A DNA stretch of 64,000 nt from Clostridia bacterium (GCA_045651205.1 JAZRSA010000050.1:29723-93722); one strand, 5' to 3'; counted from the first letter of the stretch, positions 1-56,245 are shown. Made by a program: numbers and translations. Notes: generated by a model from the letters alone, not told the origin.

Positions 1-484
1 ACCAAGTTATATCTCCCTTTATATTACTTGATGTTACTGTAATATTTTTAGTAATAGGTCCATTTGTAACATCCCCAGTCAATGTGGTTGGTGCTATTGC
101 TAAAGTCGCATCAGATGTTCCTAATGAAATTACCAAATTAGATTCTCCATCTTGCATTATATTTACTACATATCCAGTTTTTGTAGTTACTGTTTTACTA
201 TAATCTGGATTTATTATTTCATTTAGTTCTATAATTCCTTTGTTTTTCAATTCCGCAATATAACTATCTACCGTTATCTCGCCAAAACTTCTACCTAACA
301 GTTGATTCTTTACTGTTATTAATCTAGTATATTCACTTTCATAATTTGTATCACTTACTACATTTTTTGAACGTCCTATTATTCCACTATCTTCTAATGC
401 AATTATTACTGCCGCTGCAAGTATTGCCATTACAAGTATAGTTATACTCAGAACTATCATTGAAATTCCTTGTTTCTTATTCAT
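1..484 (-). CDS. Pilin-like N-terminal domain protein, paralogue A. Partial: the C-terminus lies beyond the window start.
   Basis: Reverse translation from ATG (complement of 482-484) gives MNKKQGISMIVLSITILVMAILAAAVIIALEDSGIIGRSKN.... This is near-identical to the N-terminus of the 46594..47940 protein. RBS AAGAGGTAG lies upstream. The ORF runs off the window edge. Confidence 0.6.
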   Translation of the reverse strand, partial: MNKKQGISMIVLSITILVMAILAAAVIIALEDSGIIGRSKNVVSDTNYESEYTRLITVKNQLLGRSFGEITVDSYIAELKNKGIIELNEIINPDYSKTVTTKTGYVVNIMQDGESNLVISLGTSDATLAIAPTTLTGDVTNGPITKNITVTSSNIKGDITW

Positions 485-21763: not shown

Positions 21764-23833
21764 TTATTCTTCTGTTCCATCTCCACCATTGTTTTCAGGC
21801 GCTGGAGTTGGAGTTGGTGTTGGCTCTGGTTCAGGCTTAGGCTCAGGTTTTGGTTCTGGCTTTGGCTCTGGTTCCGGTTCAGGATCTGGTGTCGGAGTTG
21901 GAGTCGGTGTTGGCTCTGGTTCCGGTTCAGGATCCGGTGTCGGAGTTGGAGTCGGTGTTGGCTCTGGTTCCGGTTCAGGATCTGGCGTCGGAGTCGGAGT
22001 TGGCGTTGGCTCTGGTTCCGGAGTTGGTGTTGGTTCCGGTGTTGTTCCCGGTGTTTCTGGTGTTGTTGGAGTTTCAGGAGTTGTTGTTTCTTCCTTCTTC
22101 TCTTCTTCATATACGCCTCTTGGAACAACTAGCTTATCGTTGTATTTAGATAAACTTATTGAACCACCTTCTAATAATTCACCGTCTAACACTTTATTTA
22201 TTAATACTGTTGCTTGCTTAATATTTCCAGCGTAAGGTATCATAACATATAATAATGTTTTTCCCATTGAATATGTTCTTTCTCTAGAACCTGCTCCGTT
22301 TAATGCTGTTGAAGATACTGTCCATTTTGCATTATCTGTTATTTGCATTCTTACTAGTTCAACCATTTTTTCTGTAGACATATTTGTTTGGAAACTTCCT
22401 TTTACTGAAGCTAGTATGTCATCAAACTTAGTAAGTATTGTTGTAGATGTTACTTTTTGAATTATTGCATCTATAACTGCTTGTTGATTTTTACCTCTAG
22501 TTGCATCTCCACCTGGTAATGAATATCTTTCTCTAGCAAATGCTAGTGTCTTTTTACCATTTAATTTATTTAATCCTTTTTTGATTTTGTATCCGCCTAT
22601 TTTTGTAGTAAATGCATATTCTGAGTCAACTTCTACTCCTCCTACAGCATCTACTATTTTTACAACCGAATTAAAGTTTACTCTTACATAATAGTTTATA
22701 TCTATTTTTAATAAATCTTCTAGTGTTTTTATAGATTTATCTACTCCATATATACCAGCATGTGTTAATTTGTCTCTATATCCACTTGTACCATTTAATT
22801 TTACATAGTAATCTCTAGGGATATTTACTAGTAATACGTGTTTTGTTTTAGGGTTTACAACCGCTAACATATTAACATCACTTCTAGATTTAGAAGGCAT
22901 TGTTTTAGAACGTGAATCTATACCACTTATATACACTATGAATGGTTTTTCTGTTACCGCAACATCCTTAACTACTTCTGGCATTTTATCCTCTAGGTTA
23001 AATTCATGTAAAGTTGTTATCTTTTCCCTAAAGTCTGGTATTTCCTCTTCTATAAGATCATAATATGCTTCTTCTACTAAAATAGCATCTACAGATTTGT
23101 CTATTAATTTATTTGCTAGCACATGTATATCATCCGTCTTTTCAGACATCATTACTATAGCTTCTTTTAGTTTAGCCATAGCTTCTTCTGTTTCACCCAT
23201 CTCGTTATCATAATACATTAATAGTTTATAAGATAAATCTTCTAATTTCTTGTATTCACCATCTTTAAGAACAACTAATGCATATGCTTTAGTTTCTACA
23301 ATTTCGCTATCTATTTCTTTTAATATATCTGTAGATTCACCTAAAATTGAATTTACATATATACATAAGGCTACTATCGCTGCTGCTATAACTGCAAATA
23401 TTATTTTTACTATGCTACTAAATTTCTTCCATAGTGTTAATGCTAACATAGCTACTAGCACTACTAAGCCGCCGCCAAAAGCATAATATAATATTTTCAT
23501 ATAGTTTGCTGGTATTAAATTAAGATCATTATTTAATTTAACACCCCTTACAAAAGTTATTATTAATATAACTGTCGCAACTAATGTTAGTATTCCTGTT
23601 ATTATTCTAATTGTTTTCTTGGCCTTTGTATCTTCGAAAGGCTTTTTCTCTTTTACTTTCTTTTCTTTAGGTTCTTTAACCTTTTTTTCTTTAACTTTTT
23701 TCTCTTTAATTGGAGATTCGTTAGTTTCTACATTATTTCTTTTTAAGAAAAGTTTTTTATTTTCTTCTCTTTGTAGTTTTTCTCTTCTTCTAATTTCCCT
23801 TTGTTCTTTTCTACTTTCCATTGTATTTTTCAC
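21764..23833 (-). CDS. LytR-CpsA-Psr (LCP) family cell-envelope phosphotransferase with Lys-rich N-terminus and ~100-aa PEPEPTPT repeat tail
   Basis: Core motifs [38 protein letters not shown] and ARERY. N-terminal TM anchor. C-terminal ([14 protein letters not shown])n repeats. Confidence 0.8.
21800..22095. repeat. In-frame coding tandem repeat (about 48-bp units, GGTGTCGGAGTTGGAGTCGGTGTTGGCTCTGGTTCCGGTTCAGGATC-like) encoding the PEPEPT linker of the LCP protein
   Basis: Repeats visible directly. They generate spurious ORFs in all frames (21596..22235 ORF-track entries). Confidence 0.85.
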
Positions 23834-25737: not shown

Positions 25738-27450
25738 TTAACCATCGATTCCAGGTCCGTCGAAAGTATCCATTTCTACTACCTCTGAAACTGTTTTTTC
25801 TCCTACAGTTGTATCTATTTCTTCTGGTGGATATACACCAGCAGCTAAAGTATCTTTCATGTCCACAGTTCCTGGAGTTACTGTACCACCTTCAGCTACA
25901 ACTTCTGGTGTAGATTCTTTTTTAGTACTTCTTTCGCTTTCTGAAGATAATGCTGCTATTATCATTGCATCTCTTGCAACGTCAGATAATCCTTCTGTTG
26001 CTTCTCTTCCAGCTCTTTCTACACTTGATCTTACTCCATCTTCTACTGAAGTATCACGTGATGAAGCTTCAGGTAAAGATAATGATCTTCCTAATCCTGA
26101 AAACCAAGATAATGGATTTCTGCTTCTTGTTCTCTTAACTTCAGAATATGTATCTAATGCTGTTCTAAAGCCTTTCATTGTTTCTAATTCAGCAATCGCT
26201 CTATCTCTTAAAGTTACTTCGTCAGCTGTTAATTCTTCACCACTAGCAACTTTAGCTTCCGCTGCAGCTACAACTTTTTCGAAAACAGATTGTCCTCTTG
26301 TCTTAGCTTCCTTATTTCCTAAGAATCCTTTTATTCCGCTCCAACTTCTTACTTCAGAACTTGCTACAATATTTTCGCCAGTTTCTGTTTTAGCATCTAT
26401 TCCATAAGTAGCGTTGATTGCTCTTAGAGCTTCTGGATATTTTCTAGTCATTTCACTTCCCATTGCAACAAGTATTACTTTTGCTTTATTTCTAAATAAT
26501 CCAGTAGAAATTCCAAATTTTTCATAACATGTTGGGTCAGCCATTATAACTTCTAATTTTTTCATATCTTCAACACCTAAACATCTTTGTTTAGCTGCTC
26601 TATATATCTCATCAAATTCTGCATAGCTCATATCTCTTGGATCTGTTGGCGCAGCTGGTGCTACTGTCGCAGTTCCACCTGGAGCTGTTGTCGCAGTTCC
26701 ACCTGGCACTGATGTTGCAGTTCCGCCTGGAACTGTTGTTGCAGTTCCGCCTGGCACTGATGTTGTAGTTCCGCCTGGAACTGTTGTTGTAGTTCCACCT
26801 GGAACTATTGTTTCATCTTCACCTGGAGTTTCTTTTTTATCATCTCCCGGAGTTTCTTTTTTATCATCTCCTGGAGTTTCTGTTACACCTCCACCTACTT
26901 CTTCTTTTGGTCCAAAATTCTTTTTAGCTCTTTCAATTCTTTTTTCTAATTTAGTTAATGAATCTATTTCTTCTGGCGTAAATACACCTTTATCTTTGAA
27001 TATATTCATTATTGGTATTAACTTTTTATTATTTTCTTTTATTTCTCTTTTTGCTGCATTTATTGCTCTTGTAGCAAGACGCATTTCTTTTTCAATACCT
27101 TTTATTTCAGCTTGGTATATTCTTATTTTATCTTTATCTCCTGCTTCGCCTTTAGCTTCTTCTTCAGCTATTACCGCTTGTAATTCTTCTATTCTAGCTT
27201 TAGATTTTTCTAAAAACTCATTGTTAGTTGCCATTTTTTCTTCTAAACCATGAATGGCATCCATTATATCTTGTTTTGCCTTTACACCAAGTTCAACAAT
27301 ACTTTCCTCAAGGCCAGAAATTGCTTTATCAAAACCAGCAACTATATTAGCTCTTTCATCATCTGACAAATCATCTCTTCCTTCTGCAGCTGCCTTATCT
27401 GCAACAAGCTTTTGATATTGTTCTTCTAATATTTCGTAATCTTTTCCCAC
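25738..27450 (-). CDS. Hypothetical 570-aa protein. N-terminal coiled-coil domain, (ETPGDDKK)3 and (VPGGTxTT)6 repeats, unknown C-terminal domain. Higher GC.
   Basis: GTG start with strong AGGAGG RBS. No signal peptide or TM. Internal in-frame repeats. G+C visibly above the flanks. Confidence 0.6.
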   Translation of the reverse strand: MGKDYEILEEQYQKLVADKAAAEGRDDLSDDERANIVAGFDKAISGLEESIVELGVKAKQDIMDAIHGLEEKMATNNEFLEKSKARIEELQAVIAEEEAKGEAGDKDKIRIYQAEIKGIEKEMRLATRAINAAKREIKENNKKLIPIMNIFKDKGVFTPEEIDSLTKLEKRIERAKKNFGPKEEVGGGVTETPGDDKKETPGDDKKETPGEDETIVPGGTTTTVPGGTTTSVPGGTATTVPGGTATSVPGGTATTAPGGTATVAPAAPTDPRDMSYAEFDEIYRAAKQRCLGVEDMKKLEVIMADPTCYEKFGISTGLFRNKAKVILVAMGSEMTRKYPEALRAINATYGIDAKTETGENIVASSEVRSWSGIKGFLGNKEAKTRGQSVFEKVVAAAEAKVASGEELTADEVTLRDRAIAELETMKGFRTALDTYSEVKRTRSRNPLSWFSGLGRSLSLPEASSRDTSVEDGVRSSVERAGREATEGLSDVARDAMIIAALSSESERSTKKESTPEVVAEGGTVTPGTVDMKDTLAAGVYPPEEIDTTVGEKTVSEVVEMDTFDGPGIDG

Positions 27451-29873: not shown

Positions 29874-30887
29874 TCATTTTATTAAAGTAAAGTCTGTTGT
29901 TGTTCCAACTTTGGCAAGTATACTTGCTTTTAAACAAATAACCGGTTGTACTTCTTTACTAGCAGTATATCCTGCGTATGCTAATTCGCTTGATGAAAAA
30001 CTCATTACTCCGCTTAAAGAAGAATATACAGGCGAAGCCATCCATACATAGTTGTTCTTTGATACATATGGTTTTTTACCATTTATTCCACCGATGCTTG
30101 CTCCACCATTTATTTTATACCCCAATGGTCCCAATGTTATTTCTATTTTAGGTTGATATCCTTTTGCATTCCATCCTGCCACTAGCAATTCTATAGTTGG
30201 TCCACCTATTGCTCCCACTACATTTTCGCCATAAGTCTCTGCATTTGCGAAATTAGAATAGTCTTTTATTAGTTTAACTACCGCCTTACTACTGTTAGCA
30301 TCATTATTACTTATTCTATCTGCTAAAATGAATTTTTCAAACTCTCCAACTCTAAATATATCATATAGTTCTTTTTCTTTTTCTGTTAAATCAGTTACTG
30401 AATAATTTGTAATCAAATCTGTATTGCCAACATTTTCTGCTGAAATTAAATATACATATTCGCTATTATGATAATATATTTCCCATTTGTCATACTTTGT
30501 TCCATCGACTGTAACAACATAATCTACTGTATCACCATAATTATCTGGTGTTATCAAAGAACCTAATGGTTGAATAGAAGTTTTATTTATAACATCTACT
30601 CCGTTTTCAGTTACTATTATATTCCATTTATCTTCTGTAACTCCTTGATTTGCAAGTTCTTGTTTTACAATTGTTGTAATATTATTTTTCTTTGCCTCAT
30701 CTAAATATGCATCCATCCATATTATTGTAGCTAATTCTTGCACCTGCTTTTCATTGTTTAAATCAACCCCTTGATTTGCTTTATTTATTATATTTGTGTT
30801 ACTTAATGTAATTACTACACTTGCTGCTAATATTATCATTACTATTATTGTTATAACTAATACTATTAACGATATTCCTCTTTTCAT
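29874..30887 (-). CDS. Pilin-like N-terminal domain protein, paralogue B (337 aa)
   Basis: N-terminus MKRGISLIVLVITIIVMIILAASVVI parallels the type IV prepilin signal (G-F-T-L-I-E-L...ILAA) but has Val at +5. The mature region is homologous to 37138..37728. Confidence 0.55.
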   Translation of the reverse strand: MKRGISLIVLVITIIVMIILAASVVITLSNTNIINKANQGVDLNNEKQVQELATIIWMDAYLDEAKKNNITTIVKQELANQGVTEDKWNIIVTENGVDVINKTSIQPLGSLITPDNYGDTVDYVVTVDGTKYDKWEIYYHNSEYVYLISAENVGNTDLITNYSVTDLTEKEKELYDIFRVGEFEKFILADRISNNDANSSKAVVKLIKDYSNFANAETYGENVVGAIGGPTIELLVAGWNAKGYQPKIEITLGPLGYKINGGASIGGINGKKPYVSKNNYVWMASPVYSSLSGVMSFSSSELAYAGYTASKEVQPVICLKASILAKVGTTTDFTLIK

Positions 30888-37137: not shown

Positions 37138-37728
37138 TTAAAAATCCTCAGCGGAAGCTTTTGGAACATAATTTCCAGCTACGATTTCTTCATTCATATA
37201 AAAACTTTTTTGTGTAGTTTCTTCAACCATTGGCCACCCACCCGGTGTATAAACGTTAATATTTGTATCGTCCGGACTCATTACAAATTCATATTGTAAT
37301 TTTTTCCCTTCTCCATACCATATAAAATCATACCATGTTGTTCCTTTATCGACGGTATACTCCACATTCAAAAATGTAAATGTAACTTTCTCCGCTGATG
37401 TATTATTTTTAGATGTAACCACAACACCTGTGTCAGATACTGTTATATTCCAATTTGTATCTGTTATACCTTGTGCTGCAAGAGCATCTTTAACAGCCTT
37501 TTCCATTGTATCTGTTCTAGACTCATCTAAATAAGCTTCCGCCCAAGCTAATGCCGCTAAATCTTGTACCTGCTTTTCATCTGTAAGTTGTACTGCTTGA
37601 CCAGCTCTGTCTATAATTCCATTATTACTCATAGCTATAACAACAGCCGCTGCCAATATTATCATTACTATTATTGTTATTACTAAAACTATTAAACTTA
37701 TTCCCTTTTTCATTAGTTTAACCTCCAT
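37138..37728 (-). CDS. Pilin-like N-terminal domain protein, paralogue C (196 aa)
   Basis: MKKGISLIVLVITIIVMIILAAAVVIAM, then DEKQVQDLAALAWAEAYLDES, homologous to paralogue B. Confidence 0.55.
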   Translation of the reverse strand: MEVKLMKKGISLIVLVITIIVMIILAAAVVIAMSNNGIIDRAGQAVQLTDEKQVQDLAALAWAEAYLDESRTDTMEKAVKDALAAQGITDTNWNITVSDTGVVVTSKNNTSAEKVTFTFLNVEYTVDKGTTWYDFIWYGEGKKLQYEFVMSPDDTNINVYTPGGWPMVEETTQKSFYMNEEIVAGNYVPKASAEDF

Positions 37729-45998: not shown

Positions 45999-46559
45999 GT
46001 GATTATTTTGTTTAATTTAACTTATAAAAACGTAATTAAAATAGGATATGCAATATGCTTAGTAGCCGGCTTTCTACTTCACTTTGCATATGATTTCTTT
46101 AACGACAACTTTATTATTGGATTATTTACTCCAGTAAATGAAAGTGTTTCTGAACATCTAAAACTTATCTTCTTGCCATTTACATTATTTACAATATTCT
46201 TCTACTTCTACTCTAAAAAGAAGTTAACAAATGTATTTCTAACATCCTTCATAGCAAACATATTAGGTATACTTGCAACAACTATTTCTTTTTATATAGG
46301 AATACAATTCTTAGGAATGAACAACACTATCTTTAACATTGGCACATATATAATAGGTATGACTATATCTTTTATTACATTCTATCTAGGTCTATACATC
46401 GATACATTTCAAGATGCCACAAAAGATTCGAATGCACTTGGAATATGTACACTTCTACTTCTTACAACATTATTTATAGTTAATACATTACTACCACTCA
46501 AACTACCTATTAACAAAGATCCTGTAACAAGTACTTATGGATTGTTTAAGATAAAATAA
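45999..46559 (+). CDS. Hypothetical polytopic membrane protein
   Basis: 186 aa with ~6 hydrophobic helices. Ends at a terminator. Confidence 0.45.
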   Translation: MIILFNLTYKNVIKIGYAICLVAGFLLHFAYDFFNDNFIIGLFTPVNESVSEHLKLIFLPFTLFTIFFYFYSKKKLTNVFLTSFIANILGILATTISFYIGIQFLGMNNTIFNIGTYIIGMTISFITFYLGLYIDTFQDATKDSNALGICTLLLLTTLFIVNTLLPLKLPINKDPVTSTYGLFKIK

Positions 46560-46560
46560 A

Positions 46561-46590
46561 ACACAGAAACAAATAGTTTCTGTGTTTTTA
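46561..46590. terminator. Bidirectional terminator (acacagaaac aaata gtttctgtgt plus TTTTTA)
   Basis: Read directly. Confidence 0.75.
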
Positions 46591-46593
46591 TTA

Positions 46594-47940
46594 TTAACCA
46601 GTACATACTACGCTACTAACTTCAACTAAAGGTGAATTATAATCATACCAATATGTTCCTTTAGATACCTTGTTCCAATTAGTTGTTGTTCCTTTATATG
46701 TTATGCTTTTTAAATAACAACCTGAAAAAGCATAATTCCCTATTGAAGCTATTCCCGTATTAAATGTTAATTTTTCCAAATTTTCCGCATTTTCAAAGGC
46801 AGAACCAGCAATTGTTGTAACATTACTTGGTATTTCCACCTCTTTTAATCCCTCTGCAAAATAAAAAGCTGAACCATCTATAGTTTTTACAGTTGATGCT
46901 ATCTTTAAATCTGCTGTACTATTCCTACCTCCTATACTAGTTAAAGAAGTACATCCATAGAACATTTCAAATGGGATTTTTTCCCAACCTTCGGGTATTG
47001 TTACATTGTTTAATTTTTCACATCTCAAAAATATAGACTCTCCAAATGTTTTTATATTATTTGAAATTTCTATACTACAACCACTACCTATAGTACCAAT
47101 GCTAGTAAAATTGCAATATGCAAGAGAATAATCTCCTATCTCAGTTACACTATTAGGTATTACGATTTTTGTTATTTTATCACAATTTTCAAACATATGG
47201 TCCCCTACCACAGTTAATCCATATGGTAATGTTGCAGTTTCAAGATTTGCCGCACCATAAAACCAATAAGTAGTATAATTAGGGATAGCTCCTTCTTCAA
47301 ATACAACATCTATTATATTAGACATTTCTGAAAGCCATGGCACTTCATCATAGTAATATTCTGCCGTTTTCCATCCAGTGTACGTTTTTGTACTTCCATC
47401 ATTTTTATATAAAGTTGATATTCCATTAGCAGCAAAAACAAAAGTCCCTGCATCATATACTGTAACAGGCGGTTCTTCATCTTCTGGAATAGTCGGATTG
47501 TTGTTATTGTTATTGTTATTGTTATTGTTATTGTTATTATTGTTTGCAATACCATCAAATACTATATTTATATCATTGCCTCCATTTTGAGAAATTGTTA
47601 CATTAAAACCACTTTTTGTTGTTACTTTCTTACTTCCATCTGCATTTGTTATTACTCCAGATTCTATTATTCCTTTATTTGTTAACTCTGTAATATATGT
47701 ATCTACGGTTATTTCACCTAGATTATCTGTAAGTATTCCATTCTTTATTACTTGTAGCCTTGTATATTCTTCATTGTAATTTTGGTTACTTACTGTATTC
47801 TTTGAACGTCCTATTATTCCACTATCTTCTAATGCAATTATTACTGTCGCTGCAAGTATTGCCATTACAAGTATGGTTATACTTAATACTATTAAAGATA
47901 TTCCCTTTCGCATCTTTTGTTTCTCCTTTATTTTATACAT
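46594..47940 (-). CDS. Pilin-like N-terminus + poly-Asn linker + BspA-type leucine-rich-repeat surface protein (paralogue D, 448 aa)
   Basis: N-terminus RKGISLIVLSITILVMAILAATVIIALEDSGIIGRSKN. N16 tract. C-terminal repeats of the BspA-type LRR pattern (...VTEIGDYSLAYC.., ...IPEGWEKIPFEMFYGCTSLTSI..., ...IAGSAFENAENLEKLTF...). Confidence 0.65.
   Translation of the reverse strand: MYKIKEKQKMRKGISLIVLSITILVMAILAATVIIALEDSGIIGRSKNTVSNQNYNEEYTRLQVIKNGILTDNLGEITVDTYITELTNKGIIESGVITNADGSKKVTTKSGFNVTISQNGGNDINIVFDGIANNNNNNNNNNNNNNNNPTIPEDEEPPVTVYDAGTFVFAANGISTLYKNDGSTKTYTGWKTAEYYYDEVPWLSEMSNIIDVVFEEGAIPNYTTYWFYGAANLETATLPYGLTVVGDHMFENCDKITKIVIPNSVTEIGDYSLAYCNFTSIGTIGSGCSIEISNNIKTFGESIFLRCEKLNNVTIPEGWEKIPFEMFYGCTSLTSIGGRNSTADLKIASTVKTIDGSAFYFAEGLKEVEIPSNVTTIAGSAFENAENLEKLTFNTGIASIGNYAFSGCYLKSITYKGTTTNWNKVSKGTYWYDYNSPLVEVSSVVCTG
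47497..47544. repeat. (GTT/ATT)16 trinucleotide microsatellite encoding Asn16 within the pilin-like/LRR gene
   Basis: Read directly. In-frame, so length changes would vary the linker rather than switch the frame. Confidence 0.85.
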
Positions 47941-48012
47941 CTATACTATTACATATTTTATTTTTTGTAAATACAAAAACAACGCATTTTTTATATGCGT
48001 TGTTTATATATT

Positions 48013-51730: not shown

Positions 51731-54700
51731 TTATTTTTCTGCTTCTCCATGCCATGGATTGTTTGGATTTGGATCAGTTGGATCCCAATTTCTATTTGCT
51801 ATATTATCTGATATTTTTGGCGCTGTAGGTTTTCCTAAAGGACCTGGAGTAGAACTATTATAAAATTCTACTGTAACACCTTTTTTAATGTTATCATAAA
51901 TCCATTTAGCATCTTCTACTGTAAGTCTTATACACCCCGCTGACGCTTTGGTACCAAGTTTATCATATTCCTCATACTTAAGAGTATCCGGAGATTTTTC
52001 TTTATATGGTACTGAATGAAATAATATATCTCCTGTTATTTGAGTACAATATTGTCCATATACATTGCCTACAAGTTTTAACCAATTCCATCTACTTTTT
52101 ATTGTATACTTTCCTTTTTTAGGTGTTGCAGTACCCGTAGAACAAACCATTGCTTTTATCGCTTTTAAATTAGCTGTATCTGGTCCTTTATATATAGTTA
52201 CTGTGTTAGCTTGTACGTTGATTTTTATATAATATATATCTTCTTTTATACTAAATTTTATTTCTTTTTTACCGGTATAATTTCCAATACCCGTTATTGT
52301 TATTAAGGCTGTTCCAACATTTATATTGTTACTATATGTTATGCTATAATCTACGCCTTCTACTAATTCATTACTTCCGTTTTTAATAACTAAATTAGGT
52401 TTTACTTCTTCACCTGTATACGATTGAGTATATATCACACTATATGTTAGATTAGAAACATTTCCTTTTGTTATATTATATGTTAATACTTTTTCACCTT
52501 GGAAGTTTCCTATACCTGTAACTTTAACAGTTGCTGTTCCTGGTTCAATGTTATTTTCATATGTTACAGTATAATCTGTACCAAGTTTTAATGTTTTCTT
52601 GTTATATACTAGTTTTAAACTTTGTTTTGTTTCAGAACCAGTATATGTTTTATTTACAAGTCCAGTTATTGTTGCTGAAGCTATACTTCTTGGATTTATT
52701 GTATATGTTAATATCTTAGTTCCAGTATAATTTCCTTTACCTTTTATAGTAATTGTACCAGTACCTGGATATACATTATTTTTATATGACACTGTATAGT
52801 GTGTACCATTTTTTAATGTTGTTCCATTATGTACCACCTTGACACTTGGATTTCTTGCTCCGCCTGTGTAGGCCATAGATGTTCCGTATGTTATATCTAA
52901 ATCATTTATATCTCTATCTACAATTTTGAAAGTTAATTTTTTACTTGATGTAAAATTACCTAATCCCGTTATTGTTACTGCTGCCGTTCCTGGATTTGTA
53001 TTATTTTTATATGTTAATTTATAATCCACTCCATTTTTTAATGTTATACCATTATATGTTAGTTCTAAGTTTTGTTTAATAGCTTTTCTTGTATACTCTT
53101 TATTTGCCAATCCTTCTACTATAGCCGAAACGATACTTCTTCTTACTATACTAAACTTAATCGTCTTTGTTCCAGTAAAGTTTCCAATTCCAGTGATTGT
53201 TATTGTAGCTGTTCCTGGTTTTGTGTTTTTACTATATGAAATAGTATAGTCCTTATCTTTTATTAAAGTGTAACTTCCATATGTTGCTTTTATGCTTGGC
53301 GTTATTGCTTTACCTGTATACGCATAACTTTTAATTTTATTGAACGTTACTGAACTTATACTTCTTCTATTTATTTTGTATGTTAATATTTTTTCACCCG
53401 TAAAGTTTCCTTTACCAGTTATTTTTACTGTAGCTGTTCCAATTTCAACATTATTTTCATATGTTAAAATATAATCTTTACCTTCTTTTAATGTCTTTTT
53501 ATTATATGTTAATGTTAAACTTTGCTTTCTTACACCACCTGTATATGCTTTGTCTGCAAAGCCTTTTATTGTTACTGAATTTATACTTCTTGGATTTATT
53601 GTATATGTTAAAACTTTAGTTCCGTTATAATTGCCTTTACCTTTTATTGTAATTGTACCTGTTCCAGGATATACATTATTTTTATACGATACTGTATAAT
53701 GTGTTCCGTTTTTTAATGTTGTCCCATTATGTACTACTTTAACACTTGGATTTCTTGCTCCTCCTGTATATGCCATAGAAGTTCCAGCTGTTATCTCTAA
53801 ATCGTTTATATTTCTATCTTTAATCTTAAATTCTAATTTTGTACTAGATCTAAAATTACCTTTACCTGTTACAGTTATTGTAGCTGTACCTGGTTTTGTA
53901 TTGTTTTTATATGACAATGTATAATCTACACCCTCTACAAGTTTTATTCCTTTGTACATAATTGTTAAATTTTGCTTTATACTCTTTGCGGTATAATATT
54001 TAACTTCTAATCCTGTAATTTCTGTAGATTTTATACTTCTTGCCACTATATTAAATTTAATTGTTTTTGTTCCAGAATAATCTCCTATTCCAGTTATTAT
54101 TATTTTACCAGTTCCAACTTTAATATTATTTTCATAAGATACTGTGTAGTCTACTCCTTCTACTAGAGTTTTTCCACCATATGTCGCTGTTATACTTGGT
54201 TTTATCTCAAAGCCTGTATATGCATAATCTGCAACTTTGTTATATGTAAAAGTAGTCACACTTCTTTTTACTATATTAAAATTAATTTCTTTAGTTCCAA
54301 TATAACTTCCTTTACCTGTTATAACTAAGGTAGCTACTCCTAATTCTTTGTTGTTTTTATATGTTATTGTATAGTCTACGCCATTTTTTAATGTAGTCTT
54401 TCCGTATTTTACTATTATTCCCTGCGTTATATTAGAACCAGTATATACTTTATCTACAACACCTGTAACAGTTGCATTGTTTATATCATAACCTATATTA
54501 TATGTTAATTGGGCTGTTCCTATGTATCCACCAGCAGTTTCGCTTCCTGTTCCCGTTATAGATATTGTATTAGTTCCCAGTTTGTTAGATGTAACTTGTG
54601 ACCAGTAAAAATCTTTACCCACTTCTAGTCTAATACCATTATGATAAATCCTAATATTATTTTCAGTTAAAGTGTTACCATATACAACATCTGATATTTT

Positions 54701-56245
54701 TTCAAAAGTTAAATTGTTTATATTTGTTGCTTTTATCTTATATGGTATATCTCTAACTCCAGAATAATTACCATACATTATAATAGAAACTGTTCCTGCT
54801 GCTTTTGATTCTATAACCGATGCATAATAGTTCTCGTTTTCTACTAATACTTTACCATTATGTTTTATAACTAGTTTAGGACGAATTCCGCCTTTTATAT
54901 AGTTATATTCTGTTTCTATTCCTTCTATTTCCAGTTCTGATATATCTACTGGTTCAATTTCAAAATGTTCTTCTAATGTACCAATGCAACTATTTATTCC
55001 TTTTACTGTAACATATACTGTTCCCGCATTTATATTGTCACTATATGTTAACGTATAATCTATTCCTTCTGTTAAAAGAATCTTTTCATAATCTGATTCA
55101 CCTTGATACGTATATACTTTTACTTCCTTTTTATGTTCTTCACCAGTATATTTAACAGAAGTCAAATCCACTTCCATTTTTCTTATATATACCGGATCAA
55201 TATAAAATTTAAACGCCGTTGTTCCTTCGTATTTACCAATACCTGTGTAAATTATTTCAGCAAGTCCTGCATATACATTGTTTTTATATGATACTGTATA
55301 GTCTCTACCTTCTTTTAGTGTTATATTTGTTCTAGTATATATTGGTACTTTGTATTCATGCGATTTAGTGTCATATGACACACTAGCTGGTCCTTCCCCT
55401 ATTTTAAATATACAATACTCCATATTGCCTTTTCCTAGTTCAAATGTTATTGTTCTTGTTCCAGCATAATTTCCCTTACCGGTTATCTCTATTGTCTTTG
55501 TACCAAACGATGAATTATCTATGGCACTTCCAATATAATCTACACCTTCATATATAGCAGTTCCATCTTCAAGTAATAAATAACCTTGCGTAGGGCCATC
55601 TGTAAATTCTTGCTTAGCTGCTATTTTCAAATTTTCTACATTCGAGCCTTTTATTTTAAACTCAAATACTTTAGTACCAGTGTAATTCCCCATACCATTT
55701 GCATATATATACCCATTTCCAGCATATATATTTACACCATAAGACAATTTATAATCCTTATCTTTAACAAGAACTGTATCTCCATTTTTAACAATTACTT
55801 CCGGTAGTTTTGGGTTGCCATCATATATATACTCTTCATCTTTATTTGATAATTCAACTGTAAACAATCTGCTTGCTTGACCTTGTATAATTTCAAAAGA
55901 TACATTTCTTGAACCTACATACTCTCCTATACCCACAACTCTAATTACGCCTTGTCCTACTTCAGTATTTGTTACATCTTCAATTATATAATCTTTGCCT
56001 AAAGTTAATATATTTCCATCATAACGAATACTTAATATTGGCTTAATTGCTTCTCCTGTATATTCATAACTATCTATCTTGTCTATTATTGTGTTATTAA
56101 TATCTATTAAATTTTCATATATCTCTTGCTTTGTTACTAAATATCCATATTTATTATATATACCTGCATTTACAGTATTTATACATACTACAAATGCCAT
56201 AATTAATAACAAAAATACTACCAACACTTTAGTTCTCTTTTGCAT
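51731..56245 (-). CDS. Giant surface L,D-transpeptidase: signal peptide, ~17 tandem ~75-aa Ig-like repeats, C-terminal YkuD catalytic domain
   Basis: Repeats of pattern YTG..IKP...V.Y.GKTL..G.DYT.SY.NN...GTA.V.I.G.GNY.GTK...F.I. C-terminal HSVPY...GTKASAGCIRL matches the L,D-transpeptidase His/Cys catalytic motif. Confidence 0.8.
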   Translation of the reverse strand: MQKRTKVLVVFLLLIMAFVVCINTVNAGIYNKYGYLVTKQEIYENLIDINNTIIDKIDSYEYTGEAIKPILSIRYDGNILTLGKDYIIEDVTNTEVGQGVIRVVGIGEYVGSRNVSFEIIQGQASRLFTVELSNKDEEYIYDGNPKLPEVIVKNGDTVLVKDKDYKLSYGVNIYAGNGYIYANGMGNYTGTKVFEFKIKGSNVENLKIAAKQEFTDGPTQGYLLLEDGTAIYEGVDYIGSAIDNSSFGTKTIEITGKGNYAGTRTITFELGKGNMEYCIFKIGEGPASVSYDTKSHEYKVPIYTRTNITLKEGRDYTVSYKNNVYAGLAEIIYTGIGKYEGTTAFKFYIDPVYIRKMEVDLTSVKYTGEEHKKEVKVYTYQGESDYEKILLTEGIDYTLTYSDNINAGTVYVTVKGINSCIGTLEEHFEIEPVDISELEIEGIETEYNYIKGGIRPKLVIKHNGKVLVENENYYASVIESKAAGTVSIIMYGNYSGVRDIPYKIKATNINNLTFEKISDVVYGNTLTENNIRIYHNGIRLEVGKDFYWSQVTSNKLGTNTISITGTGSETAGGYIGTAQLTYNIGYDINNATVTGVVDKVYTGSNITQGIIVKYGKTTLKNGVDYTITYKNNKELGVATLVITGKGSYIGTKEINFNIVKRSVTTFTYNKVADYAYTGFEIKPSITATYGGKTLVEGVDYTVSYENNIKVGTGKIIITGIGDYSGTKTIKFNIVARSIKSTEITGLEVKYYTAKSIKQNLTIMYKGIKLVEGVDYTLSYKNNTKPGTATITVTGKGNFRSSTKLEFKIKDRNINDLEITAGTSMAYTGGARNPSVKVVHNGTTLKNGTHYTVSYKNNVYPGTGTITIKGKGNYNGTKVLTYTINPRSINSVTIKGFADKAYTGGVRKQSLTLTYNKKTLKEGKDYILTYENNVEIGTATVKITGKGNFTGEKILTYKINRRSISSVTFNKIKSYAYTGKAITPSIKATYGSYTLIKDKDYTISYSKNTKPGTATITITGIGNFTGTKTIKFSIVRRSIVSAIVEGLANKEYTRKAIKQNLELTYNGITLKNGVDYKLTYKNNTNPGTAAVTITGLGNFTSSKKLTFKIVDRDINDLDITYGTSMAYTGGARNPSVKVVHNGTTLKNGTHYTVSYKNNVYPGTGTITIKGKGNYTGTKILTYTINPRSIASATITGLVNKTYTGSETKQSLKLVYNKKTLKLGTDYTVTYENNIEPGTATVKVTGIGNFQGEKVLTYNITKGNVSNLTYSVIYTQSYTGEEVKPNLVIKNGSNELVEGVDYSITYSNNINVGTALITITGIGNYTGKKEIKFSIKEDIYYIKINVQANTVTIYKGPDTANLKAIKAMVCSTGTATPKKGKYTIKSRWNWLKLVGNVYGQYCTQITGDILFHSVPYKEKSPDTLKYEEYDKLGTKASAGCIRLTVEDAKWIYDNIKKGVTVEFYNSSTPGPLGKPTAPKISDNIANRNWDPTDPNPNNPWHGEAEK

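Follow-up and report, generated by a model that had tools for sequence, protein, structure and literature searches.

A clostridial gene that appears to join a pilin-like N-terminus, a poly-Asn spacer, and a BspA-type leucine-rich repeat (LRR) domain raises the question of how such a head would be displayed: at the tip of a type 4 pilus, as a first-pass annotation of the locus had suggested, or on a membrane anchor, which the same annotation had named in its title as the alternative. The gene lies on the minus strand of a 64,000-nt stretch of DNA from a Clostridia bacterium (GCA_045651205.1, JAZRSA010000050.1:29723-93722), which is referred to as the window; all positions are counted from its first letter, and features are on the minus strand unless stated otherwise. 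The window (30.3% GC) is plainly chromosomal Firmicute DNA. The neighbors in the window include ligA, pgsA, mreBCD, glmS, serS, ftsY, and murF, and the sporulation genes SpoIID, SpoIIID, SipL, and YunB are present in relatives.

The gene and its LRR head

The open reading frame recognized earlier (46594..47940, 448 aa) exists, but its start has to be corrected, as it was extended mechanically to an upstream ATG at 47940. Translation almost certainly begins at the second ATG (47913), because a ribosome-binding site (AAAGGAG, 47923..47929) is located 9 nt upstream and because an orthologous gene that conserves this site has lost the upstream ATG and encodes a protein beginning with MRKG. The corrected coding sequence (46594..47913) comprises 439 codons and the stop codon.

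The orthologue (P0001), which is 87% identical and stems from assembly GCA_054291765.1, is the only one in the collections searched; the exact LRR protein was not found in the assembly index. Its locus is syntenic and shares the two ABC exporters, the LRR gene, the genes encoding DUF6512 and DUF1294 proteins, pgsA, and ligA. A diversity-generating retroelement lies approximately 4 kb from the LRR gene on the orthologous contig; it was rejected as the cause of the diverged LRR repeats, as its template repeat matches another gene and not the LRR gene.

The LRR gene is predicted to form a transcription unit of its own, flanked by two terminator-like hairpins, because the first of these (47977..48005) closes the upstream ABC-exporter operon. 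The second (46558..46588), which follows the stop codon, has no strand preference and is a two-way structure common to the convergent gene at 45999..46559. The hairpin scan yielded four terminator-like sites, compared to 0.4 expected. A promoter-like element (TTTACA-17-TAGTAT, 47943..47971) is weak and matches the consensus only, in a scan whose number of sites was no higher than in shuffled sequence.

The C-terminal part of the protein (46597..47466) consists of a short beta region, eight BspA-type LRRs (residues 202–402, counted by eye), and a cap (residues 403–439). Pfam LRR_5 (PF13306, BspA type) matches the C-terminal 290 residues in two stretches with 138.4 bits (E=1.6e-40), at a gathering cut-off of 27.7 bits. 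IPR026906 is the BspA-type LRR entry of InterPro. The AlphaFold2 (AF2) model of the protein (mean pLDDT 81.7) predicts a confident solenoid, with values of ~85–97 over most of the LRR region. A Foldseek search with the model returned 4h09, 4fs7, 4gt6, 4cp6, 4fdw, and 4fd0 with a probability of 1.00 and E values of 1.7e-7 to 6e-5; 6mlx was also among the matches to the solenoid. TM-scores were low (0.2–0.35), as they are normalized on the whole two-domain query. The top matches (4h09, 4fs7, and 4gt6) are LRR_5 crystal structures of surface proteins from gut commensals, followed by PcpA and TpLRR. The head is thus a typical LRR_5 domain with a predicted BspA-like solenoid, and the earlier count of about eight repeats was accurate. 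Of the two results that the first-pass annotation had named as speaking against its reading, the one concerning the fold, namely an LRR region without such a solenoid, was not observed.

BspA-like surface proteins with LRR_5 domains, such as Tannerella BspA, Streptococcus pneumoniae PcpA, Treponema pallidum TpLRR, and the proteins of structures 4h09, 4fs7, and 4gt6, share the Pfam family and the predicted solenoid with the head described here. Their identity to it, however, is only 16–25%, and none of them possesses the N-terminal module of the present protein. They are anchored by other means, such as lipoprotein or Sec signals, choline-binding repeats, or T9SS domains. A motif scan of the 439-aa protein detected no C-terminal LPXTG-like motif, and the C-terminus is occupied by the LRR cap; anchoring by a sortase was rejected for want of the motif.

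The N-terminal carrier module and its family

Homology searches with the LRR protein separate into two groups of matches. Those to the LRR head have identities of ~25–40%, whereas the others cover only the first ~120 residues, where they are mostly 73–82% identical (53–65% in a few) before continuing into unrelated sequence. By this comparison, the N-terminal module of ~125 aa is an unannotated carrier that the many genes of one large family combine with heads of interchangeable kinds. This family had escaped the first-pass annotation, and membership in it alters the meaning of the N-terminus.

The module starts with a short, basic leader (MRKG, 47902..47913), whose Gly is equivalent to position -1 of prepilins. 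The leader is followed by 24 uncharged residues (ISLIVLSITILVMAILAATVIIAL, 47830..47901) with Val at +5, which the AF2 models predict to form a helix that would be either a membrane anchor or the equivalent of the alpha1-N segment of pilins. The globular part (residues 29–123, 47545..47829; pLDDT ~85–93) consists of a long helix, a short helix, and a four-strand beta meander. It is 65–83% identical in most paralogues and 56–62% identical in the most divergent ones, despite their unrelated heads. Across the family, the aligned module opens with the leader and the hydrophobic segment SLIVLSITILVMAILAA, continues with the motif LEDSGIIGRSK, a conserved helix (EYTRLxVIKNGILTDNLG), and another helix, and closes with four strands that end in DG(Y)T. 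The heads that follow it are Big_2 domains, Hint/PT-HINT domains, other LRR_5 arrays, or unknown domains, and some members have almost no head at all.

A profile search with the carrier recovered 45 protein clusters (formed at 50% identity) at E<1e-30, a number that rose to 396 at E<1e-10 and to 4078 at E<1e-3; the weaker matches resemble the carrier chiefly in its first ~50 residues. With the wider “KGITLIALVITIIVLLILA” (GITLIALV) type as the seed, 6827 clusters were recovered. None of the carrier-family clusters contains a pilin Pfam domain, and the sole name in their sources is “hypothetical protein”. No Pfam or NCBIfam family matched over the carrier module, and a full-text literature search found no papers containing its N-terminal peptide strings. 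The locus encodes a pilin-like carrier that belongs to no annotated Pfam or NCBIfam family and is common to a large and diversified group of genes in uncultured gut Clostridia.

In a search of reference genomes, the module was present at 64 loci in nine species, with many copies per species; all nine are uncultured, bear the designation “Clostridia bacterium” or “Clostridium sp.”, and come from the guts of animals and humans. The DNA of these related MAG species that surrounds family genes (1.08 Mb from 69 sources) contains 70 members, with up to four in 20 kb. There are probably tens of carrier genes per genome, because several copies are found at single loci. In Pfam-annotated contexts, the genes lie dispersed, one by one, between genes for housekeeping and sporulation. 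An origin from phages or plasmids was rejected, since tblastn searches of phage and plasmid collections gave no match to the carrier.

Four paralogues with the carrier N-terminus are present in the window, which agrees with the label “paralogue D” given to the LRR gene by the first-pass annotation. Paralogue A (2..~484), which is truncated by the window edge, has the same carrier subtype as paralogue D and a Big_2-like head. Paralogue B (29874..30887), whose carrier is 33% identical to that of paralogue D, and paralogue C (37138..37728), a short protein, have a second subtype. Homology between the two subtypes extends over the full length of the module (116 residues, 33% identity, E=2e-11).

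Purifying selection acts on the carrier, most strongly on its hydrophobic helix, as judged from 32 paralogues of the same subtype. The hydrophobic segment has a pS of 0.41 and a pN of 0.058; for the next 53 residues, the values are 0.51 and 0.19. Since synonymous differences are substantial and amino-acid differences rare, the conservation points to selection and not to recent copying.

The Asn tract and the spacer

Carrier and head are separated by a linker. Its first half is a tract of 16 Asn residues (47497..47544) encoded exclusively by AAC and AAT codons (GTT/ATT on the plus strand), as the first-pass annotation had stated exactly. The pure (AAY)16 has a perfect (AACAAT) core, for which Tandem Repeats Finder reports 6.3 copies of a 6-nt repeat (47501..47538). 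The second half is rich in Pro and Glu (PTIPEDEEPP, 47467..47496). In the AF2 model, the Asn tract and its surroundings (residues 126–141) form the one long internal stretch of low confidence (pLDDT<50), and the tract is presumably a flexible spacer.

Linkers rich in N, G, S, T, P, or E, which vary in length and composition, are located at the equivalent position in the paralogues. A spacer is, for this reason, a constant feature of the family, with the pure Asn run as its extreme form. Some linker between carrier and head is kept in every paralogue, which suggests that a spacer is needed.

The length of the tract varies in frame, as far as can be judged from two alleles: the orthologue has nine Asn residues instead of 16, and the difference is a single clean in-frame gap of 21 nt in DNA that is otherwise ~90% identical. 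A scan of metagenomes with the flanks of the tract gave one match, which was due to chance and located in an unrelated gene of the helicase/restriction type. The proposal that the spacer varies in length without switching the protein on or off agrees with this comparison of two alleles. Replication slippage in the (AAY)16 tract would alter the spacer in whole-codon steps and change its reach, leaving expression unaffected; because the repeat unit is a whole codon, slippage could not switch the gene on or off.

In this respect, the locus resembles the simple-sequence contingency loci of host-associated bacteria, which likewise comprise a perfect coding microsatellite in a gene for a surface protein that differs in length between relatives. 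By contrast, phase variation at such loci involves slippage that shifts the reading frame or the promoter spacing, whereas the tract consists of whole codons here, the observed difference of 21 nt is in frame, and the length of the spacer is altered without on/off switching.

Alternatively, the tract may be a mere by-product of an AT-rich genome: a linker of low complexity, neutral in effect, that drifts in length without any tuning of function. The arguments for and against this explanation are about evenly balanced. The GC content of 30.3%, the assorted N/G/S/T/P-rich linkers of the paralogues, which are unlike in length and composition, and the single length difference observed are all consistent with neutrality. 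However, the Asn16 tract is the sole homopolymeric amino-acid run of at least six residues among all open reading frames of at least 100 aa in the window and is therefore not a product of chance, and the presence of a linker in every paralogue speaks for a need for the spacer.

Pilin-like features and proposed surface display

Taken at its most probable, the gene encodes a cell-surface binding protein of interchangeable modules that is held by its carrier; we infer its localization, processing, and ligand, and hold this explanation with moderate confidence. Insertion would proceed via the Sec pathway and leave the leader in the cytoplasm. The protein would then be anchored by its hydrophobic helix, which would span or lie in the membrane, with or without removal of MRKG by a prepilin-type peptidase that cuts at Gly4. 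The carrier module and the Asn/Pro/Glu spacer would keep the LRR head at a distance from the membrane, and the head might bind a ligand there, either for adhesion or in another protein–protein contact. The membrane-anchored alternative of the first-pass annotation fits the evidence at least as well as the pilus does.

However, two points sit uneasily with a plain membrane anchor. Such an anchor needs neither an invariant Gly-[IV]-[ST]-L boundary nor a helix that is so highly conserved; both point to a dedicated enzyme or partner and would suit a pilin as well. Moreover, carrier, linker, and head together would reach ~15–20 nm at most (our estimate), which may not suffice to clear a thick Gram-positive wall; a membrane-anchored head might therefore not be exposed.

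Both difficulties would be eased if the protein were a modular type 4 pilin: a prepilin peptidase would cut after Gly4, the carrier would be a genuine pilin module that lacks Glu5 in the manner of GspK/PilK-type cap subunits and docks onto the tip complex of a type 4 filament, the LRR head would be located at the tip of the pilus, and the paralogues would serve as alternative tips. A plain anchor explains less well why the Gly boundary is invariant and the helix so constrained, and a pilus would also solve the problem of clearing the wall. Nevertheless, we consider this main rival the less probable of the two.

Part of the case for a pilin is made by the signal itself. By definition, Glu5 is “often, but not always” present in class III signals, and tip complexes are capped by a subunit that lacks it (PMC10191384). 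The N-terminus described here has a hydrophilic leader with Gly directly N-terminal to the hydrophobic stretch (MRK-G|ISL). Position -1 is Gly in 290 and Ala in seven of 299 relatives, although some leaders have as few as 4 residues and others as many as 40. K, R, Q, or N occupies position -2, and the [IV]-[ST]-L-I after the boundary resembles the F-T-L-I of prepilins. The hydrophobic stretch of 24 uncharged residues (family median 26) lies in the expected range of 20–25 residues and is part of a predicted helix (residues 2–30). The pilin-like N-terminus noted earlier is thus borne out in the Gly at -1 and the uncharged stretch but not in the positions that follow the putative cleavage site. 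Glu or Asp is absent from position +5, which is Val here and V, A, or T in all 299 relatives; position +1 is Ile here and is neither Phe nor Met in any of them.

Signature searches speak against a pilin. PF07963 and TIGR02532 gave no match at E values of up to 0.1, nor at up to 10 when the isolated N-terminus was searched. The PilFind rule, which demands the motif [GAS]-x4-[DE], 14 uncharged residues, and a length of at most 350 aa (PMC3244431), fails in both the motif and the length limit.

The structural evidence is divided. When modeled alone (pLDDT 83), the carrier shows the order of elements in a pilin, in which ~60 helical residues, kinked once, precede a short helix and a meander of four strands; the hydrophobic helix is its most constrained part. 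A sequence profile search of the PDB with the membrane segment returned only the type 4 pilins MshA and geopilin, both in register with the Gly, at the non-significant E values of 2 and 6.7. However, a Foldseek search with the N-terminal module yielded no pilin among its matches (best E=0.42).

No ATPase of the PilB/TadA type, PilD motif, or Glu5-containing prepilin was detected within 10 kb of the 70 family genes; at perhaps a tenth of each genome and centered on family genes, this sample places the genes outside pilus operons but does not imply that the genomes lack pili. None of these was seen in the 64-kb window either. The scans, which used regular expressions for the Walker and His boxes of GspE/PilB/TadA, the GxGD box of PilD, and Glu5 prepilins, matched only the ATPases ABC, PriA, and UvrB. 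In addition, the tens of copies implied for each genome far exceed the number of known tip pilins. With Val at +5, neither a signature nor a PilFind match, no pilin in Foldseek, and no machinery in 1.08 Mb of surrounding DNA, the proposed location at a pilus tip finds no support.

Modular type 4 pilins are nevertheless an instructive parallel. They consist of a small pilin module with a grafted binding domain that is probably located at the tip of the pilus (Raynaud et al. 2021, PMC8179133). A layout that couples a pilin to BspA LRRs has precedents, because architectures combining IPR012902 with IPR026906 (18+6 proteins) are already listed in the same survey. Like PilB and PilC of Streptococcus sanguinis (PMC8179133), the protein described here has a small carrier with a Gly-ending leader and a hydrophobic helix, a short linker, and a grafted domain that is not specific to pili. 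Modular pilins, however, are defined by the IPR012902 signature, which matches neither the LRR protein nor any other member of the carrier family, so that the layout is analogous only. Unlike modular pilins, the carrier family lacks Glu5 and Phe1, its genes are located outside and not near pil loci, and it is far larger per genome.

A second parallel exists with the Glu5-less cap pseudopilins and minor pilins of the GspK and PilK/PilX types, which are located at filament tips (PMC10191384) and can carry an extra domain. By contrast, there is only one of these per system, encoded in the operon of the machinery, whereas Glu5 is missing from all members of the present multigene family, near which no machinery was seen. 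The carrier family is best described as a pilin-like variant that may or may not belong to the type 4 pilins; it is not filed with them because it lacks the IPR012902 signature and, throughout, Glu5, has far more members per genome, and shows no linkage to pil loci. We infer a form related to type 4 pilins and do not assume that it polymerizes into filaments.

It is very improbable that the protein is an ordinary secreted one whose Sec signal peptide is removed by signal peptidase I, releasing the LRR protein or leaving it non-covalently bound to the wall: the N-terminus is basic and then hydrophobic like a signal peptide, and small residues after the helix of some paralogues (e.g., ...IAMS/NNG) could fit the -3/-1 rule of signal peptidase, but an uncharged stretch of 24 residues is long for a cleaved signal peptide, the ALEDSG that follows it here offers no acceptable -3/-1 pair, the conservation of the helix is far above that usual for signal peptides, and the invariant Gly precedes the helix rather than following it.

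Returning to a protein held at the surface by its carrier, the LRR gene itself is a fairly ordinary one for a BspA-type surface protein with a slippery Asn spacer, and the carrier is the more useful result. A possible, if tentative, extension is that the Glu5-less N-terminus ([KR]-G-[IV]-[ST]-L-I-[VA]-L... plus a small alpha/beta module) marks a large and undescribed class of carriers in gut Clostridia that derive from type 4 pilins and use a prepilin-type peptidase route to mount interchangeable heads (BspA LRRs, Big_2, and Hint/toxin-like domains, among others) as filament caps or membrane-held proteins. If so, this class would span thousands of protein clusters, probably with tens of members per genome.

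In archaea, non-pilus proteins are known to carry class III signals, such as the sugar-binding proteins of Sulfolobus that are processed by PibD. The carrier family would be the bacterial counterpart of such non-pilus surface proteins, in which a prepilin-type signal serves as a wide route of surface anchoring and not for one filament alone. However, these belong to another domain of life, and their signals are recognized by known peptidases, whereas no peptidase was identified here.

Should the carrier undergo prepilin-like processing, a major route of surface display in gut commensals would have been overlooked, because the class as a whole escapes catalogues of type 4 pilins that are based on signatures (IPR012902, PilFind). 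Were the carrier nothing more than a membrane anchor, it would still define the principal family of variable surface proteins in this clade and would provide a handle for predicting the surface proteome of its members and their repertoire for binding to hosts or particles.

Mosaic divergence of the leucine-rich repeats

Divergence between the LRR gene and its orthologue on the syntenic contig is mosaic. It is far higher in the first two to three repeats (window 47128..47313, repeats 1-3), with 0.48 synonymous (pS) and 0.18 amino-acid-changing (pN) differences per site, than in repeats 3-8 and the cap (window 46597..47127), where pS is 0.12-0.18 and pN 0.03-0.05. This pattern in the aligned sequences suggests recombination or a local diversification of the putative binding face.

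Retroelement and repeat-bearing genes

The orthologous contig (GCA_054291765.1; L001) also carries a diversity-generating retroelement, which adjoins the syntenic ABC-exporter genes. Besides bAvd and reverse-transcriptase genes, it has a template/variable repeat pair of 114 nt with 86% identity (parts at L001:240-353, 1023-1367, 1386-1497, and 1696-2658). The variable repeat lies within another, truncated gene and not in the LRR gene. The matching position in the window is occupied by a gene (51731..56245, minus strand) whose product of 1504 aa bears a YkuD L,D-transpeptidase domain at its C-terminus; the gene contains a 225-nt internal tandem repeat (53346..53773). Long coding tandem repeats are present also in two other minus-strand ORFs, with a period of 48 nt in one (ORF 21764..23833; repeat 21862..22055) and 24 nt in the other (ORF 25738..27450; repeat 26665..26827). 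The two ORFs may encode further repeat-variable envelope proteins.

Other heads of the carrier family

A fourth copy of the carrier, the pilin-like N-terminal module, is present in paralogue A (window 2..484, minus strand), which is cut by the left window edge; it is of the same subtype as that of the LRR gene and bears a Big_2-like head. Many short paralogues (P0122-P0129, P0146) are closed by a domain of ~70 residues (motif ITFTIDG..YQAEEGMTW.EW..S.YN), for which no Pfam family was reported; the same domain forms 5-9 tandem copies in other proteins that lack the carrier (among those listed, P0200, P0206, P0212, P0222, and P0226). Some family members, such as P0067 (L067:10001-11767) and P0072, join the same carrier as in the LRR gene to Big_2 repeats with a PT-HINT/Hint domain after it. 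Because this layout is typical of polymorphic toxins, the carrier may also display or deliver toxin-like heads.
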